11,721 nucleotides of DNA from a virus (Duplodnaviria; Heunggongvirae; Uroviricota; Caudoviricetes): the IMG/VR virus record IMGVR_UViG_2663762849_000017. The stretch is one strand, 5' to 3'. The notes under the pieces were generated by a model. It saw only the letters and a program-made list of their open reading frames with translations, had not been told where the DNA came from and searched no databases. Position numbers and translations under genes: made by a program. Positions 485 to 7,936 of the stretch are shown one piece after another. Position 1 is the first letter of the stretch, and the number at the start of each line of letters is the position of its first letter.

Positions 485-700
485 ATGAAATCCATGGATA
501 AGTTAACAACGGGTGTCGCCTATGGCACCTCAGCAGGTAGTGCCGGGTACTGGTTTTTACAGTTGCTCGATAAAGTCACGCCCTCACAGTGGGCGGCAAT
601 AGGTGTGCTGGGTAGTCTGGTATTTGGCTTGCTGACGTATCTGACAAACCTTTATTTCAAGATTAAAGAAGATAAGCGTAAGGCTGCGAGAGGTGAATAA
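485..700 (+). CDS. S: Class II holin (pinholin), phage 21 S21-like, 71 aa
   Basis: ATG at 485 preceded by a GAGGTGGGG Shine-Dalgarno. The N-terminus MKSMDK carries the dual-start motif (Met1/Met4) typical of S21 holin/antiholin. Two hydrophobic helices are followed by a charged C-terminus [13 protein letters not shown]. The protein closely resembles the phage 21 pinholin as I recall it. Its stop overlaps the next ATG (TAATG). Confidence 0.85.
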
Positions 701-3700
701 TGTCGCCATCATTACGCAAGGCTATTGCTGCTATTGGTGGTGGGGCTGTTGCCATAGCGTCTGTGCTCATCACTGGTCCGAGTGGTGACGATGGCCTGGA
801 AGGTGTCAGCTACATACCATACAAAGATATTGTTGGTGTATGGACTGTATGTCACGGGCATACAGGAAAAGACATCATGCTCGGTAAAACGTATAAAGGC
901 AGCAGTAAGGGGCATACCCCGCGCGAAGCGAAGGACAACCTGAAATCCACGCAGTTACTGAGTGTGATCGATGCCATCAGCGAAGGGCCGATTGAAGGTC
1001 CGGTGGATGGGTTAAAAAGCGTGCTACTGAACAGTACGCCGGTGCTGGACACTGAGGGGAATACCAATATCTCCGGTGTCACGGTGGTGTTCCGGGCAGG
1101 TGAGCAGGAGCAGACTCCGCCGGAGGGGTTTGAATCCTCCGGCTCCGAGACGGTGCTGGGTACGGAAGTGAAATACGACACGCCGATCACCCGCACCATC
1201 ACGTCGGCAAACATCGACCGTCTGCGTTTTACCTTCGGTGTGCAGGCACTGGTGGAAACCACTTCAAAGGGTGACCGGAATCCGTCGGAAGTTCGCCTGC
1301 TGGTTCAGATACAGCGTAACGGTGGCTGGGTGACGGAAAAAGACATCACCATTAAGGGCAAAACCACCTCGCAGTATCTGGCCTCGGTGGTGGTGGATAA
1401 CCTGCCTCCGCGCCCGTTCAATATCCGGATGCGCAGGATGACACCGGACAGCACCACAGACCAGCTGCAGAACAAAACGCTCTGGTCGTCATACACCGAA
1501 ATCATCGATATGAAACAGTGCTACCCGAACACGGCACTGGTCGGTGTGCAGGAGGACTCGGAGCAGTTCGGCAGTCAGCAGGTGAGTCGTAATTATCATC
1601 TGCGCGGGCGCATTCTGCAGGTGCCGTCGAACTATAACCCGCAGACGCGACAATACAGCGGTATCTGGGACGGAACGTTAAAACCGGCATACAGCAACAA
1701 CATGGCCTGGTGTCTGTGGGATATGCTGACCCATCCGCGCTACGGCATGGGGAAACGTCTTGGTGCGGCGGATGTGGACAAATGGGCGCTGTATGTCATC
1801 GGCCAGAATTGCGACCAGTCGGTGCCGGATGGTTTTGGTGGCACGGAGCCGCGCATCACCTGTAATGCCTGGCTGACCACACAGCGTAAGGCGTGGGATG
1901 TTCTCAGTGATTTCTGCTCGGCGATGCGCTGTATGCCGGTATGGAACGGGCAGACGCTGACGTTCGTGCAGGACCGGCCGTCGGATAAGGTGTGGACCTA
2001 TAACCGCAGTAATGTGGTGATGCCGGATGATGGCGCGCCGTTCCGCTACAGTTTCAGCGCCCTGAAGGACCGCCATAATGCCGTTGAGGTGAACTGGATT
2101 GACCCGGATAACGGCTGGGAGACGGCGACAGAGCTTGTGGAGGACACGCAGGCCATTGCCCGTTACGGTCGTAACGTCACGAAGATGGATGCCTTTGGCT
2201 GTACCAGTCGGGGGCAGGCACACCGAGCCGGGCTGTGGCTGATTAAAACGGAACTGCTGGAAACGCAGACCGTGGATTTCAGCGTGGGCGCAGAAGGGCT
2301 TCGCCATGTGCCGGGCGATGTTATTGAAATCTGCGATGATGACTATGCGGGTATCAGCATCGGCGGGCGCGTGCTGGCGGTGAACAGCCAGACCCGGACG
2401 CTGACGCTCGACCGTGAAATCACTCTGCCATCCTCCGGTACCACGCTGATAAGCCTGGTTGACGGAAGCGGCAATCCGGTCAGCGTGGAGGTCCAGTCCG
2501 TCACCGACGGCGTGAAGGTAAAAGTGAGCCGGGTTCCTGACGGCGTTGCCGGATACAGCGTGTGGGGGCTGAAGTTGCCGACGTTGCGCCAGCGCCTGTT
2601 CCGCTGCGTGAGTATCCGTGAGAACGATGACGGCACGTATGCCATCACTGCCGTGCAGCATGTACCGGAAAAAGAGGCCATCGTGGATAACGGGGCGCAC
2701 TTTGACGGCGACCAGAGCGGCACGGTGAATGGTGTCACGCCGCCAGCGGTGCAGCACCTGACTGCCGAAGTCACCGCAGACAGCGGGGAATATCAGGTGC
2801 TGGCGCGCTGGGACACGCCGAAGGTGGTGAAGGGGGTGAGCTTTATGCTTCGCCTGACCGTGGCAGCGGATGACGGCAGTGAGCGGCTGGTCAGCACGGC
2901 CCGGACGACGGAAACCACATACCGCTTCACGCAACTGGCGCTGGGGCGGTACACGCTGACAGTCCGGGCGGTAAATGCGTGGGGGCAGCAGGGCGATCCG
3001 GCGTCGGTATCGTTCCGGATTGCCGCACCGGCAGCACCGTCGAGGATTGATCTGACGCCGGGCTATTTTCAGATAACCGCCACGCCGCATCTTGCCGTTT
3101 ATGACCCGACGGTACAGTTTGAATTCTGGTTCTCGGAAAAGCGGATTACCGATATCAGGCAGGTTGAAACCACAGCCCGCTATCTTGGCACGGCGCTGTA
3201 CTGGATAGCTGCCAGTATCAATATTAAGCCGGGCCATGATTATTATTTTTATATCCGCAGTGTGAATACTGTTGGCAAATCGGCATTCGTGGAGGCTGTC
3301 GGTCAGGCGAGCGATGATGCTTCCGGCTATCTGGATTTTTTCAAAGGCCAGATAACTGAATCCCATCTCGGCAAGGAGCTGCTGGAAAAAGTCGAGCTGA
3401 CGGAGGATAACGCCAGCAAACTGGAGGAGTTTTCGAAAGAGTGGAAAGACGCCAACGATAAATGGAATGCCATGTGGGGCGTCAAAATTGAGCAGACCGA
3501 AGACGGCAGGCATTATGTCGCGGGTATTGGCCTCAGCATGGAGGATACGGAGGAAGGCAAACTGAGCCAGTTCCTGGTTGCCGCTAACCGTATCGCGTTT
3601 ATTGACCCGGCAAACGGGAATGAAACGCCGATGTTTGTGGCGCAGGGCAACCAGATATTCATGAACGAAGTGTTCCTGAAGTATCTGACGGCTCCCACCA

Positions 3701-4287
3701 TTACCAGCGGCGGCAATCCGCCGGTATTTTCCCTGACACCGGACGGGCGGTTGACGGCGAAAAATGCCGATATCAGCGGTAACGTGAATGCGAACTCAGG
3801 GACGCTCAATAATGTCACGATTAACCAGAACTGTCGGATTCTGGGAAAACTGTCTGCCAACCAGATTGAAGGTGATATTGTCAAAACGGTGGGAAAAGCC
3901 TTTCCGAGAAATGGCAGTTATGCCAGCGGTACAATAACGGTCACTGTGTACGATGACCAGGCTTTTGACCGTCAGATAGTAATCCCACCCGTTCTGTTTC
4001 GCGGTGGTAAGCATGAAAACTTCAACAGCAACAACCAACAGTCATACTGGTATTCAACCTGTAAGCTGCAGGTACTGAAGAACGGACAGGAAATCTTTCA
4101 GCAACCCGCGACGGATGTCAGCAGGGTATTTTCATCCGTCATTGATATGCCAGCGGGACACGGCCATGTCACCCTGACTTTCAATGTTTCTTCATATGGT
4201 GCAAATAACTGGACGCCAACGACCAGTATCAGCGACCTTCTTGTTGTCGTGATGAAGAAATCAACAGCCGGTATCAGTATCAGTTGA
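700..4287 (+). CDS. J: Chimeric ORF: N-terminal ~65 aa of a SAR endolysin (R21-like lysozyme) fused in frame to a lambda J-like tail-tip host-specificity protein (residues ~66-1195)
   Basis: Residues 1-65 ([65 protein letters not shown]) match the signal-anchor-release domain and start of the catalytic domain of phage 21 endolysin. From [22 protein letters not shown] onward the protein is collinear with lambda gpJ (recalled from memory). There is no ATG at the position of the native J start, so translation depends on the R start. The ORF is uninterrupted over 3.6 kb. The last ~140 aa differ from the lambda J C-terminus and are lower in GC. Confidence 0.85.
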
Positions 4288-4305
4288 ATTTTATAACCCA
4301 AATAC

Positions 4306-4331
4306 GGGCGCCAGAAATGGCGCCTTTTTTA
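4306..4331 (+). terminator. Rho-independent terminator between J and stf
   Basis: GGCGCC (4307-4312), loop AGAAAT, GGCGCC (4319-4324), followed by TTTTTT (4325-4330). Confidence 0.6.
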
Positions 4332-4345
4332 TTTGTGGAGTGAAT

Positions 4346-6406
4346 ATGGCAGTACAGATTTCAGGCGTGCTGAAAGACGGTGCAGGAAAACCAATACAGA
4401 ACTGTACTATTCAGCTCAAAGCAAAGCGTAACAGCACCACGGTACTGGTGAACACGGTGGCCTCTGAAAATCCGGATGAAGCCGGGCGTTACAGCATGGA
4501 TGTTGAGTATGGCCAGTACAGCGTCACCCTGCTGGTTGAAGGTTTTCCGCCTTCACATGCCGGGACCATTACCGTCTATGAAGGTTCCAGACCAGGTACG
4601 CTGAATGATTTTCTCGGTGCCATGACGGAAGATGATGTCATGCCGGAGGCATTGCGTCGTTTTGAGGTAATGGTGGAGGATGTGGCACGCAACGCTGAAG
4701 CCGCCTCTCAGAGCGCAGCGGCAGCAAAGAAATCAGAAACAGCAGCGGCATCGTCCAGGAACGCGGCGAAAACATCAGAGACGAATGCAGGTAACAGCGC
4801 GAAAGCGGCAGCTTCTTCAAAAACAGCCGCACAAAACGCAGCAACAGCGGCAGAACGTTCAGAGACAAATGCCCGTGCGTCAGAAGAAGCCTCCGCAGAC
4901 AGTGAAGAGGCTTCCCGCCGTAATGCAGAGTCAGCCGCTGAAAATGCCGGAGTCGCCACCACAAAAGCGCGGGAGGCTGCAGCAGACGCAACAAAGGCCG
5001 GGCAGAAAAAGGATGAGGCTCTGTCGGCAGCGACACGAGCTGAAAAGGCGGCAGACCGCGCAGAAGCCGCAGCGGAAGTGACTGCAGAGCCCTATGCGAA
5101 TATAGTGCCGCCGCTGCCTGATGTGTGGATACCGTTTAACGATTCACTGGATATGATTGCGGGTTTTTCTCCGGGCTATAAAAAAATAGCTATTGGTGAC
5201 GATGTGGTTCAGGTCGCCAGTGATAAACAGGTTAATTTCAGTCGCGCATCAACGGCAACATATATCAACAAATCTGGCGAACTGAAAACGGCGGAAATTA
5301 ATGAGCCGCGATTTGAGTGTGATGGCCTGCTTATTGAGGGACAAAGAACGAACTACATGCTCAATTCGGAAAGTCCAGCCAGCTGGGGGAAGTCATCAAA
5401 CATGGATGTGCCCGAAACCGGGACGGATAGTTTTGGTTTTACTTATGGAAAGTTTGTCTGCAACGATTCTCTGGTTGGGCAAACTTCGGCTATTAATATG
5501 GCATCAATTGCTGCAACAAAGTCAGTTGATGTCTCAGGCGATAACAAGTACGTGACAACCTCATGCCGTTTTAAAACAGAACGACAGGTAAGGTTACGTA
5601 TACGGTTTGATAAGTATGATGGTAGTGCAACAACTTTTCTTGGCGATGCGTACATTGATACGCAAACGCTTGAAATTAATATGACAGGTGGTGCTGCCGG
5701 CAGAATTACGGCACGAGTCAGGAAGGATAAGACCACGGGCTGGATTTTTGCAGAGGCAACGATTCAGGCAATTGATGGAGAGTTAAAAATAGGCTCTCAG
5801 ATACAGTATTCTCCTGAGCAGGGTGGGGCAACAGTATCTGGTGACTATATTTATCTTGCCACCCCACAAGTAGAGAATGGACCATGTGTATCATCATTTA
5901 TTATTTCAGGAGGCAGCGCAACGACAAGAGCCAGTGATTTGGTTAGTATCCCCACCAGAAATAATCTTTATAAGTTACCATTTACTTTTTTACTTGAGAT
6001 TCATAAAAACTGGGATATTGCACCAAACGCCGCACCCCGCGTGTGGGATATAGCAGCAGCCAATACCGGGCAATCAGCAATTGCAGCAATCAACAGAGGT
6101 AGTGGTAAGTTATATATGAGTCTGTCAAACCCTTCAGGCTCGTATGTTAATAGCGCAGCGACAGATGTATTTGCAGAGAAAACCACATTTGGATGTATTG
6201 CAAAAGCTGATGGTCACTTTCATGTGGTGACAAATGGTAAAGCGGTTAATGAAGTTTATTGTGAATATAATGGCGTGACCGCTGATAAAAATATCCGATT
6301 TGGAGGGCAGACGAATACTGGAGAACGACATCTGTTTGGCCATATTCGCAATTTCCGCATATGGCATAAAGAATTAAATGACAGGCAATTAAAAGAGGTC
6401 GTATGA
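4346..6406 (+). CDS. stf: Side tail fibre protein (lambda Stf-like N-terminus, Ala/Ser-rich shaft, divergent lectin-like C-terminal domain)
   Basis: The N-terminus MAVQISGVLKDGAGKPIQNCTIQLKAKRNSTTV...GRYSMDVEYGQYSVTLLVEGFPPSHAGTITVYE matches the lambda Stf N-terminal domain as I recall it. It is followed by an Ala/Ser/Glu-rich repetitive shaft. The C-terminal ~430 aa are encoded by lower-GC DNA and end in NFRIWHKELNDRQLKEV, a motif typical of concanavalin-A-like/LamG jelly-roll domains. I place the start at ATG 4346 with GGAG 6 nt upstream; the ORF track starts at GTG 4340. Confidence 0.8.
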   Translation: MAVQISGVLKDGAGKPIQNCTIQLKAKRNSTTVLVNTVASENPDEAGRYSMDVEYGQYSVTLLVEGFPPSHAGTITVYEGSRPGTLNDFLGAMTEDDVMPEALRRFEVMVEDVARNAEAASQSAAAAKKSETAAASSRNAAKTSETNAGNSAKAAASSKTAAQNAATAAERSETNARASEEASADSEEASRRNAESAAENAGVATTKAREAAADATKAGQKKDEALSAATRAEKAADRAEAAAEVTAEPYANIVPPLPDVWIPFNDSLDMIAGFSPGYKKIAIGDDVVQVASDKQVNFSRASTATYINKSGELKTAEINEPRFECDGLLIEGQRTNYMLNSESPASWGKSSNMDVPETGTDSFGFTYGKFVCNDSLVGQTSAINMASIAATKSVDVSGDNKYVTTSCRFKTERQVRLRIRFDKYDGSATTFLGDAYIDTQTLEINMTGGAAGRITARVRKDKTTGWIFAEATIQAIDGELKIGSQIQYSPEQGGATVSGDYIYLATPQVENGPCVSSFIISGGSATTRASDLVSIPTRNNLYKLPFTFLLEIHKNWDIAPNAAPRVWDIAAANTGQSAIAAINRGSGKLYMSLSNPSGSYVNSAATDVFAEKTTFGCIAKADGHFHVVTNGKAVNEVYCEYNGVTADKNIRFGGQTNTGERHLFGHIRNFRIWHKELNDRQLKEVV
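4680..5090 (+). repeat. Ala/Ser/Glu-rich low-complexity repeat region inside stf (fibre shaft)
   Basis: Reiterated motifs such as AAxxSETNA / AASS / AAENA in the translation. The GC-rich repetitive codons produce spurious ORFs in other frames and on the opposite strand. Confidence 0.6.
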
Positions 6407-6681
6407 AAGATTTAACTTTGAAGTTTCATGACAAACTGCAGTTTAAGGCCTTCCTGTCATCTCTTGGCTGGGCGGAAGATGAAGACCTCCAGAATAAACT
6501 GTTAGTTGATGAAATTGGTTTCACCTACACAGAAACAGGGGTAACAGAAGAGGGAGAACCTGTCTGTATCCGGAATGATGGTTATTTTGTCAACATTCGC
6601 ATTCTTGATGACTTGTTTGATGTTTCTGTATTCTCTGATTATGTCGTGGAGCTGGAAACACCGCTTCGGGAATGGAGCTGA
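6403..6681 (+). CDS. Hypothetical acidic 92-aa protein, translationally coupled to stf; possible tail-fibre accessory/chaperone by position only
   Basis: ATG at 6403 overlaps the stf stop (ATGA), with AAAAGAGG 4 nt upstream. The product is acidic and has no hydrophobic segment. It does not resemble the lambda Tfa N-terminus and its family was not recognised. Confidence 0.5.
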   Translation: MKDLTLKFHDKLQFKAFLSSLGWAEDEDLQNKLLVDEIGFTYTETGVTEEGEPVCIRNDGYFVNIRILDDLFDVSVFSDYVVELETPLREWS

Positions 6682-6693
6682 AAGGAGGAAATA

Positions 6694-7134
6694 ATGGATA
6701 TAAGCCCCTTACTTCATGCACTTTGTGCTGTGGCTGCGCAGATACTGGTTGGTCTTTTTACCGGAAACTGGGCTTACGGAGCGATAGCCGGTTGTACGTT
6801 CTTCATTGCGCGTGAACATACCCAGGCAGAATATCGCTGGATTGAAATGTTCGGGCATGGCAAGCGAATGAATATGCCGTGGTGGGGCGGTTTTGATCCG
6901 CGTGCTTGGGATGTGGCAAGCCTGATGGATTTTGCTGTGCCGGTGGTGGCGTGTCTGCTGGTCTGGCTGTTGGTTAATCGTGGGCGAAAAAAGGTGAGCT
7001 GTATATGCAACGGAGGAAGAAACCCCGTTGCTGGAAGCCAGGAAAAAGTATCGGGTGTTGCTGTCCTCGGATGTTGTGCTAATTGGGTGATAACAGATCC
7101 TGTGTATGGGAGTTTCCCTTTTTGCGTGCGTTGA
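6694..7134 (+). CDS. Hypothetical small integral membrane protein (about 3 predicted TM helices), 146 aa; C-terminal extent uncertain
   Basis: Strong Shine-Dalgarno AAGGAGG 5 nt before ATG 6694, 12 nt after the previous stop. Hydrophobic segments are LLHALCAVAAQILVGLFTG, AYGAIAGCTFFIA and VASLMDFAVPVVACLLVWLLV, followed by RGRKK. The last ~18 codons overlap the convergent sitD 3' end, so the true C-terminus is uncertain. Confidence 0.5.
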   Translation: MDISPLLHALCAVAAQILVGLFTGNWAYGAIAGCTFFIAREHTQAEYRWIEMFGHGKRMNMPWWGGFDPRAWDVASLMDFAVPVVACLLVWLLVNRGRKKVSCICNGGRNPVAGSQEKVSGVAVLGCCANWVITDPVYGSFPFCVR

Positions 7135-7936
7135 TGCTGGTAACGGCAAACGTCATGATGAACAAAACCGCGAATAAGACGACAATCGTCGGAGCTGGTG
7201 CGCTGTCGATAAAAAAGGACAACCAGACACCAGTCATTGACACTATTACCGATATGCCAGTCGCCAGTAGGAGCGCAATATGAAAGCGTTGTGTCAGGAG
7301 TACCGCAATGGCGCCAGGCGCAATGAGCAGAGAAATGGAGAGAATGATACCTACCGCTTTCAGCGTCGCCACAATGGTCAGAGAGACCATGCACAGCAGC
7401 CCATAATGCAGCCATCTCGTATGCAAACCGCTTACCTGCGCCTGTTGATAATCAAAGCTGAACAGCAAAAAATCCCGCCATTTTACGCTAATAACAAGTG
7501 TAACCAGCCCGGCAATAATCATCGTCTGGATTATATCGCCGATGGTTATCCCGAGCATGTCGCCGAAAAGAATATGGTCAAGATGTACGTCTGGTTTGAC
7601 TGCAATATACAAGATCAGACCTGCGGCAAACATGCCAGAAAAAACAATCCCCATCACTGTATCTTGCTTGATTCGGCTGTTGTCTTTCAGGTATCCCGTC
7701 GCCACCGCGCAGAATACTCCGGCGACGAATGCCCCTGTAGCCAAAGGTAACCCCAGAATCCAGGCAAGCACGATGCCAGGAAAAACCGCATGACTCATCG
7801 CGTCACCCATCAGTGCCCAACCTTTCAGGACCAGAAAGACTGACAGCAGCGCACAGGGTATGGAAACTACCAGTGAAATCAGCAGTGCGTGACTCATAAA
7901 GGTGAACTGCAGTGGCTCCAGTAATAATGCCATCAT
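7079..7936 (-). CDS. sitD: Mn/Fe ABC transporter permease SitD
   Basis: 285-aa polytopic membrane protein, last gene of a four-gene operon (binding protein, ATPase, two permeases). Its start overlaps the sitC stop by 4 bp. Confidence 0.85.
   Translation of the reverse strand: MMALLLEPLQFTFMSHALLISLVVSIPCALLSVFLVLKGWALMGDAMSHAVFPGIVLAWILGLPLATGAFVAGVFCAVATGYLKDNSRIKQDTVMGIVFSGMFAAGLILYIAVKPDVHLDHILFGDMLGITIGDIIQTMIIAGLVTLVISVKWRDFLLFSFDYQQAQVSGLHTRWLHYGLLCMVSLTIVATLKAVGIILSISLLIAPGAIAVLLTQRFHIALLLATGISVIVSMTGVWLSFFIDSAPAPTIVVLFAVLFIMTFAVTSINARKKGNSHTQDLLSPN

Follow-up and report, generated by a model that had tools for sequence, protein, structure and literature searches.

A lost stop codon probably accounts for the overlap of a small phage membrane-protein gene with sitD in a decaying phage-21-like prophage

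The window analysed here, a stretch of 11,721 nucleotides from the viral record IMGVR_UViG_2663762849_000017, comes from a lambdoid prophage of the phage 21 type that is integrated at icd; it represents the right arm, where sitABCD lies as convergent cargo just downstream of the tail-fibre genes. DNA identity with phage 21 is 98.3% over positions 3623 to 10665, a region that includes the end of J, the side tail fibre, two small ORFs and sitDCBA, and the window ends with the icd 3′ fragment that is typical of the phage 21 attachment site. The segment from the sitA upstream region to the icd fragment (10666-11163) has no counterpart in phage 21, where a gene for a hypothetical protein of 252 amino acids is found instead, and the 79-aa ORF that the window has at 10722-10961 yields no Pfam match. 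The features of the locus are as follows.

700-4287, plus strand: in-frame fusion of lysozyme and J, 1195 aa, with a PF00959 match at residues 33-82
6403-6681, plus strand: phage ORF of 92 aa (phrog_1361), corresponding to CPT_21_23 in phage 21
6694-6984, plus strand: small phage membrane protein, 97 conserved codons (phrog_1443; CPT_21_24 of phage 21), delimited by profile match and homologue lengths
6985-6987, plus strand: codon 98, CGA here and a TGA stop in the ancestral gene, with T to C at 6985 as the stop-loss mutation
6988-7134, plus strand: adventitious extension, codons 99-146 and the TGA at 7132-7134, which together with codon 98 gives a 49-aa tail
7007-7031, both strands: hairpin with a perfect stem of 7 bp (9 bp with one bulge) and a 6-nt loop
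7007-7063, plus strand: 3′-end remnant of a tail-fibre-assembly (tfa) gene, which reads ATEEETPLLEARKKYRVLL in frame from 7007; the 146-aa ORF uses a different frame
7052-7063, no strand: junction between phage backbone and sit cassette, CGGGTGTTGCTG, with 5-12 bp of microhomology
7064-7078, minus strand: sit-type 3′ flank of 15 nt, between the junction and the sitD stop codon
7079-7936, minus strand: sitD, metal ABC transporter permease, 285 codons, intact, stop codon TAG at 7079-7081
7933-10528, minus strand: sitC, sitB and sitA, remaining genes of the sit operon, upstream of sitD

The two convergent ORFs at the centre of this arrangement are both present in the ORF list as the original prediction had described them, one of 146 aa on the plus strand (6694-7134) and one of 285 aa on the minus strand (7079-7936), with 56 bp in common (7079-7134). 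The naming of the minus-strand ORF as sitD is also borne out. It matches the Pfam ABC-3 profile (PF00950) with an E-value of 1.5e-76 over positions 1-257 of 258, it lies in a sitABCD operon, its length is that of plasmid and Shigella SitD, and genomes without a single difference from the window over 6350-7350 carry it annotated as sitD. On the plus strand, the start codon of the 92-aa ORF overlaps the stop codon of the side-tail-fibre gene (ATGA, 6403-6406), which places the two in the same late transcription unit. The 146-aa ORF comes after the 92-aa ORF and has an AGGAGG ribosome-binding site at 6683-6688, and it is therefore the last gene of this late tail-fibre unit.

Residues 1-96 of the plus-strand ORF match positions 1-96 of 97 in the profile of phrog_1443 (E = 2.4e-58), a PHROG phage family of unknown function. 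A search of a large protein collection returned 543 homologues at E ≤ 0.001, from Escherichia, Shigella, Salmonella, Citrobacter, Enterobacter, Leclercia, Aeromonas and Comamonas. Among the best 120 of the 543, the median length is 98 aa and 86 have between 93 and 103 residues. Column occupancy falls to about zero beyond position 97 in a MAFFT alignment of the homologues, among which a length of 146 aa is confined to the cluster that holds the window's own allele. The hydrophobic stretches of the ORF lie at approximately residues 1-39 and 73-95, and the curators of phage 21 label CPT_21_24 as a putative membrane protein with two transmembrane domains. Thus, the ORF belongs to the family by sequence over the whole profile but departs from it in length, since members have about 95-100 aa and stop just past the last hydrophobic segment. 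The excess length stems from the CGA at codon 98, which identifies the ORF as a stop-loss allele of a phrog_1443 member. The 97-aa protein has no match in Pfam or NCBIfam. Its position after the receptor-binding genes permits a guess at a superinfection-exclusion role like that of Cor or Llp.

A base-by-base comparison with phage 21 finds three differences within the ORF. Two are synonymous (codons 9 and 70), and the third, C for T at 6985, converts TGA to CGA at codon 98 and is the sole non-synonymous change. In a tblastn search of phage genomes, the whole 146-aa frame is recovered at 145 of 146 residues (99.3%) in phage 21 and some 24 other lambdoid phages, in each case adjoining sitD. The phage 21 counterpart is annotated as 97 codons (L002, positions 6001-6294), with sitD 91 bp beyond. 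The same TGA occurs in the sit-less phages HannyBb and ev243, and in PhiR11_1 and mEp460 the sequence departs a few codons before that point, with an annotated length of 95 aa. The TGA of phage 21, HannyBb and ev243, together with the earlier ends in PhiR11_1 and mEp460, indicates that the ancestral protein had about 97 residues and that the window records a stop-loss transition. Of the two options put forward originally, loss of the true stop codon of the plus-strand ORF, with an adventitious tail as the result, is therefore supported by the orthologues: the same length with a conserved C-terminus was not found among them, and they end at about 95-100 aa. Programmed read-through of the TGA was considered and rejected, given that the frame beyond it shows no conservation: ev243 has lost one nucleotide immediately past the stop codon, and PhiR11_1 and mEp460 end elsewhere.

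The frequency of the substitution was gauged with 61-mers. The version centred on 6985 that carries C has exact matches in 77 complete E. coli records and the T version, taken from phage 21, in 1486; these counts take in sit-less prophages with the same gene and are not allele counts of the sit-linked locus alone. The sit-linked layout (at least 80% of 6350-7350) is present in 1033 of 5426 complete E. coli genomes, and the C allele, with its 77 records, therefore accounts for at most about 7% of sit-linked genomes. Exactly this protein of 146 aa has been deposited from 978 contigs, labelled for instance 'hypothetical protein G727_01356'. An error of sequencing or assembly at C6985, with a real gene of 97 aa, would be compatible with a difference of a single base, and the representative of the 146-aa cluster (P0001, from a single ENA contig) does show two further odd substitutions, with G at residues 98 and 101 in place of the R and V of the window. 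These may reflect either a second substitution at the old stop codon or assembly noise. However, the same 61-mer recurs in 77 independently assembled complete genomes and the protein on contigs from several sources, which leaves an error with a virtually negligible probability and establishes C6985 as a real, clonally spread allele.

The NCBI pipeline has in effect reached a similar conclusion about the gene. Where a genome agrees with the window at every position of 6350-7350, the PGAP annotation is limited to codons 1-97 and describes a pseudogene, 'incomplete; missing C-terminus'. The pseudogene status of the plus-strand ORF is thus already flagged, and there is nothing new in kind in this respect.

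The make-up of the tail accords with its being adventitious. Beyond codon 98 it consists of a 19-nt spacer, the tfa remnant (7007-7063), the sit flank (7064-7078), and the complement of the sitD stop codon and last 17 codons. The tail has no PHROG match and, in PHROG and the large protein collection, no homologues outside the identical allele. The tfa fragment of the window covers 19 codons and matches positions 95-115 of 131 in the Caudo_TAP profile (PF02413) with E = 0.009, under the gathering score. In a sit-less E. coli relative (L008, positions 3053-3172), a longer fragment matches positions 95-130 of 131 with E = 9.4e-17 and is annotated by PGAP as a partial tail fibre assembly protein. 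These matches fall short of a complete tfa gene, and the segment at 7007-7063 is a remnant rather than a gene. Its codons lie in another frame, so the 146-aa ORF reads this pseudogene remnant out of frame.

Could the 146-aa form nevertheless be a functional variant, with its 49-aa C-terminal tail selected in this lineage? The frame is intact and the exact protein is widespread (77 complete genome records, 978 contigs), a persistence which shows that the allele is at least not strongly deleterious. Clonal descent explains this persistence, and a neutral hitch-hiker in a successful clone would give the same pattern. A run-on of 49 codons after loss of a stop codon is not remarkable either, having a chance of about 0.10 in a simple model with a stop frequency of 3/64. 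Further points against selection are that the tail lacks homologues and is built from an out-of-frame tfa remnant and antisense sitD sequence, and that a late-gene product has no obvious role in a prophage unable to make virions. We consider a selected tail exceedingly unlikely, and judge from its composition that it probably has no function.

The sit genes themselves meet the phage backbone inside the tfa remnant. Homology with sit-less phages extends to 7063, and homology with the sit region of a ColV-type plasmid (89%) begins at 7052, such that the two overlap in the 12 nucleotides CGGGTGTTGCTG. The flank of plasmid-borne sit agrees with this sequence at 11 of 12 positions, and the Shigella flexneri flank agrees in part, matching down to 7059 and then leading into a different tfa-type gene. 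The short stretch of shared sequence suggests that the sit cassette may have been captured by illegitimate recombination within the tfa remnant. The cassette shows the presence/absence pattern of a phage moron or cargo element at one backbone position among related phages. HannyBb, ev243, PhiR11_1, mEp460 and E. coli 510016 have the upstream genes in common and carry other DNA in place of sit, namely an invertase, a methyltransferase, or dinI and int. In the S. flexneri sit locus (L010, positions 2559-3840), sitD, whose protein is 98% identical, likewise converges on phage ORFs of the tail-fibre and assembly type, though these belong to another sequence type; more than one lambdoid backbone therefore holds the sit cassette in this niche.

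The original prediction also held that no hairpin lies between the two transcription units, and in this it was inaccurate. A stable hairpin at 7007-7031 is located inside the ORF tail, between the ancestral stop codon (6985-6987) and the sitD stop codon (7079-7081), in what becomes a convergent spacer of 91 bp once the ancestral stop is restored. Its arms, GCAACGG and CCGTTGC at 7007-7013 and 7025-7031, are the sole inverted repeat in 6900-7200, and its predicted folding energy is −14.5 kcal/mol (z = −3.4) on the plus strand and −14.8 kcal/mol (z = −5.0) on the minus strand. The fold of the whole spacer on the plus strand is not significant (z = −0.54), and the window has no Rfam match anywhere. 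An intrinsic terminator combines a G+C-rich hairpin with an adjoining U-tract. Here, the sequence on the 3′ side of the hairpin is UGGAAGCC on the plus strand, and a U-run does not directly follow the stem on either strand; a run of six A residues (6988-6993), equivalent to U6 on the minus strand, is 14 nt past the stem. The hairpin is therefore not a canonical intrinsic terminator, although it could serve as a stabiliser of transcript 3′ ends if transcripts terminate in a Rho-dependent manner.

The claim that the two units lack a terminator between them is upheld in this more limited sense. Pattern scans of 6300-8100 and of the whole window reveal no canonical terminator at the junction and nothing terminator-like near it on either strand. 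On the plus strand, terminator-like sites occur at 323-344 and 4306-4325, the latter corresponding to the terminator annotated after J in phage 21, and then none until 10290. The same kind of scan finds no terminator-like site after sitD, either here or in the copy on the ColV-type plasmid. We considered whether the phage-borne sit cassette has lost its native terminator and make no such claim, since the plasmid copy shows none downstream of sitD either. GC skew on the plus strand is +0.3 to +0.44 over 6850-7150, which means that sit RNA extending past its stop codon is C-rich and G-poor, as fits a Rho loading site. The plus strand itself turns C-rich at about 7350-7500. From base composition and gene layout, Rho-dependent termination in untranslated antisense sequence would be the simplest expectation in both directions.

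The remainder of the window documents the decay of the prophage. The fusion ORF at 700-4287 joins the N-terminal ~64 codons of lysozyme (about 700-893) in frame to nearly the whole of the tail-tip protein J, from which it follows that Rz, cos and all head and tail-shaft genes have been deleted and that the prophage is defective. Some relatives have, in addition, an IS4 insertion in J. In the closest complete genomes, the element retains P, a frameshifted replication gene, the nin region, quuD, a porin gene and essD.

At its left end, positions 1-178 of the window (minus strand) derive from the interior of rsxB (RsxB model positions 90-147, E = 2.6e-27) and are joined directly to prophage DNA upstream of essD. 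This joint at 178/179 is absent from all 5426 complete E. coli genomes, and relatives continue leftwards with the porin gene and quuD. Either the strain has undergone a rearrangement or deletion of its own, or the assembly is chimeric. If the joint is genuine, the source genome does not have upstream of essD the DNA in which relatives carry quuD and the porin gene.

These observations bear on whether the convergent layout, devoid of an intrinsic terminator, might be a regulatory device, as the original prediction proposed. Late transcription antiterminated by Q would run antisense into sitDCBA and repress sit, or transcription of sit would damp the late operon, and the extended ORF would strengthen the effect as ribosomes shield the plus-strand RNA from Rho over a further 147 nt. 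In keeping with this proposal, neither strand has a canonical intrinsic terminator between the units, nothing terminator-like is seen on the plus strand over 4325-10290, and the curated annotation of phage 21 likewise places no terminator between the plus-strand gene and sitD. The layout is also kept in phage 21, in more than 20 phages and in 1033 E. coli genomes. However, such conservation is explained by common descent of a single cassette insertion, and sit-less relatives hold other cargo at the same place. The ORF overlap is irrelevant to any such coupling, because phages with the stop codon in place have the two genes in the same convergent arrangement, and the stop loss is limited to a minority allele. 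In lambdoid phages, moreover, late genes are silent in the lysogen, which is when sit matters. The prophage has no head or tail genes, the window does not contain the part in which related genomes carry Q and the porin gene, and upstream terminator-like sites are present on the plus strand (323-344 and 4306-4325). Overall, regulatory coupling between late transcription and sit is unsupported in this prophage, and we regard a regulatory design as highly unlikely. During the lytic growth of an intact phage 21, polymerase modified by Q may well continue into sit in the antisense direction, although this would serve no obvious regulatory purpose.

There is likewise only a very slight chance that the substitution has an effect of its own, in which translation over the additional 147 nt shields the plus-strand RNA from Rho, so that antisense transcription deeper into sitD slightly lowers or modulates SitABCD, or in which the tail confers a new property on the membrane protein. 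If either were true, a single base change would have produced a small lineage-specific regulatory or de novo coding innovation.

We conclude, with a probability of roughly 90%, that the overlap with sitD arose incidentally, from a single point mutation that is specific to one lineage of a decaying prophage, and is not a designed feature. The starting point is the arrangement of phage 21 and its relatives, in which the last late-strand gene encodes the 97-aa membrane protein and ends in TGA at the equivalent of window positions 6985-6987, 91 bp before the stop codon of sitD on the opposite strand. Mutation of T6985 to C in one E. coli lineage turned this codon into CGA and left the frame open for 49 more codons, through the 19-nt spacer, the out-of-frame tfa remnant, the 15 nt of sit 3′ flank and 53 nt antisense to the end of sitD. 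The run-on frame ends at the chance TGA at 7132-7134, with sitD itself left intact.

Accordingly, the 146-aa 'hypothetical protein' found on 978 contigs derives by stop loss from a 97-aa phage protein, its gene is properly annotated as a pseudogene, and the apparent overlap with sitD should not be taken for regulatory design. The value of this result lies mainly in the correction of annotation and in the exact joint of sit and backbone, and its biological weight is small. Specifically, the joint of the sit virulence cassette with the phage 21 backbone is now located at 7052-7063, inside the tfa remnant and 15 nt past the sitD stop codon.

The locus is the known phage-21-type sit cassette. Phage 21 (GenBank OL657228, CPT_21_24 to CPT_21_28) has the same gene order and orientation, with the small membrane-protein gene followed by convergent sitDCBA and no annotated terminator between them. 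It differs from the window in keeping the TGA at codon 98, and hence a protein of 97 aa and no overlap, and in being a complete, viable phage rather than a deleted prophage. Phage 21 has been described in general terms as a carrier of morons, multigene virulence loci among them (Feiss et al. 2022, PMC9119081). Our literature search found no paper that links sitABCD with phage 21 by name.

The sit island (PAI sit) of S. flexneri and E. coli is described as lying at differing places in the chromosome, in DNA that is related to prophages and is unstable and rearranged (Fisher et al. 2009, summarised in PMC7545054). The S. flexneri island resembles the window in that its SitD is 98% identical and its sitD is convergent with tail-fibre-assembly-type genes. 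In contrast, its flank diverges at 7058, 20 nt past the sitD stop codon, and the island of the window is at the icd attachment site of phage 21.

Convergent and antisense layouts are known from other systems, among them those of the 'excludon' type and the late transcripts of lambda that run into the b region. Like excludon-type layouts, the window has two convergent units without an intrinsic terminator between them. Unlike in those cases, the overlap here is a recent mutation without conserved design, and the likeness is one of sequence arrangement rather than of transcripts or regulatory outcome. A close parallel is with the stop-loss pseudogenes of decaying prophages that PGAP labels 'incomplete; missing C-terminus', in which one substitution likewise lets the frame run to the next chance stop codon. 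Nothing material sets the window apart from these, and it is unusual only in that the extended frame runs into the 3′ end of an opposing gene that is itself intact.
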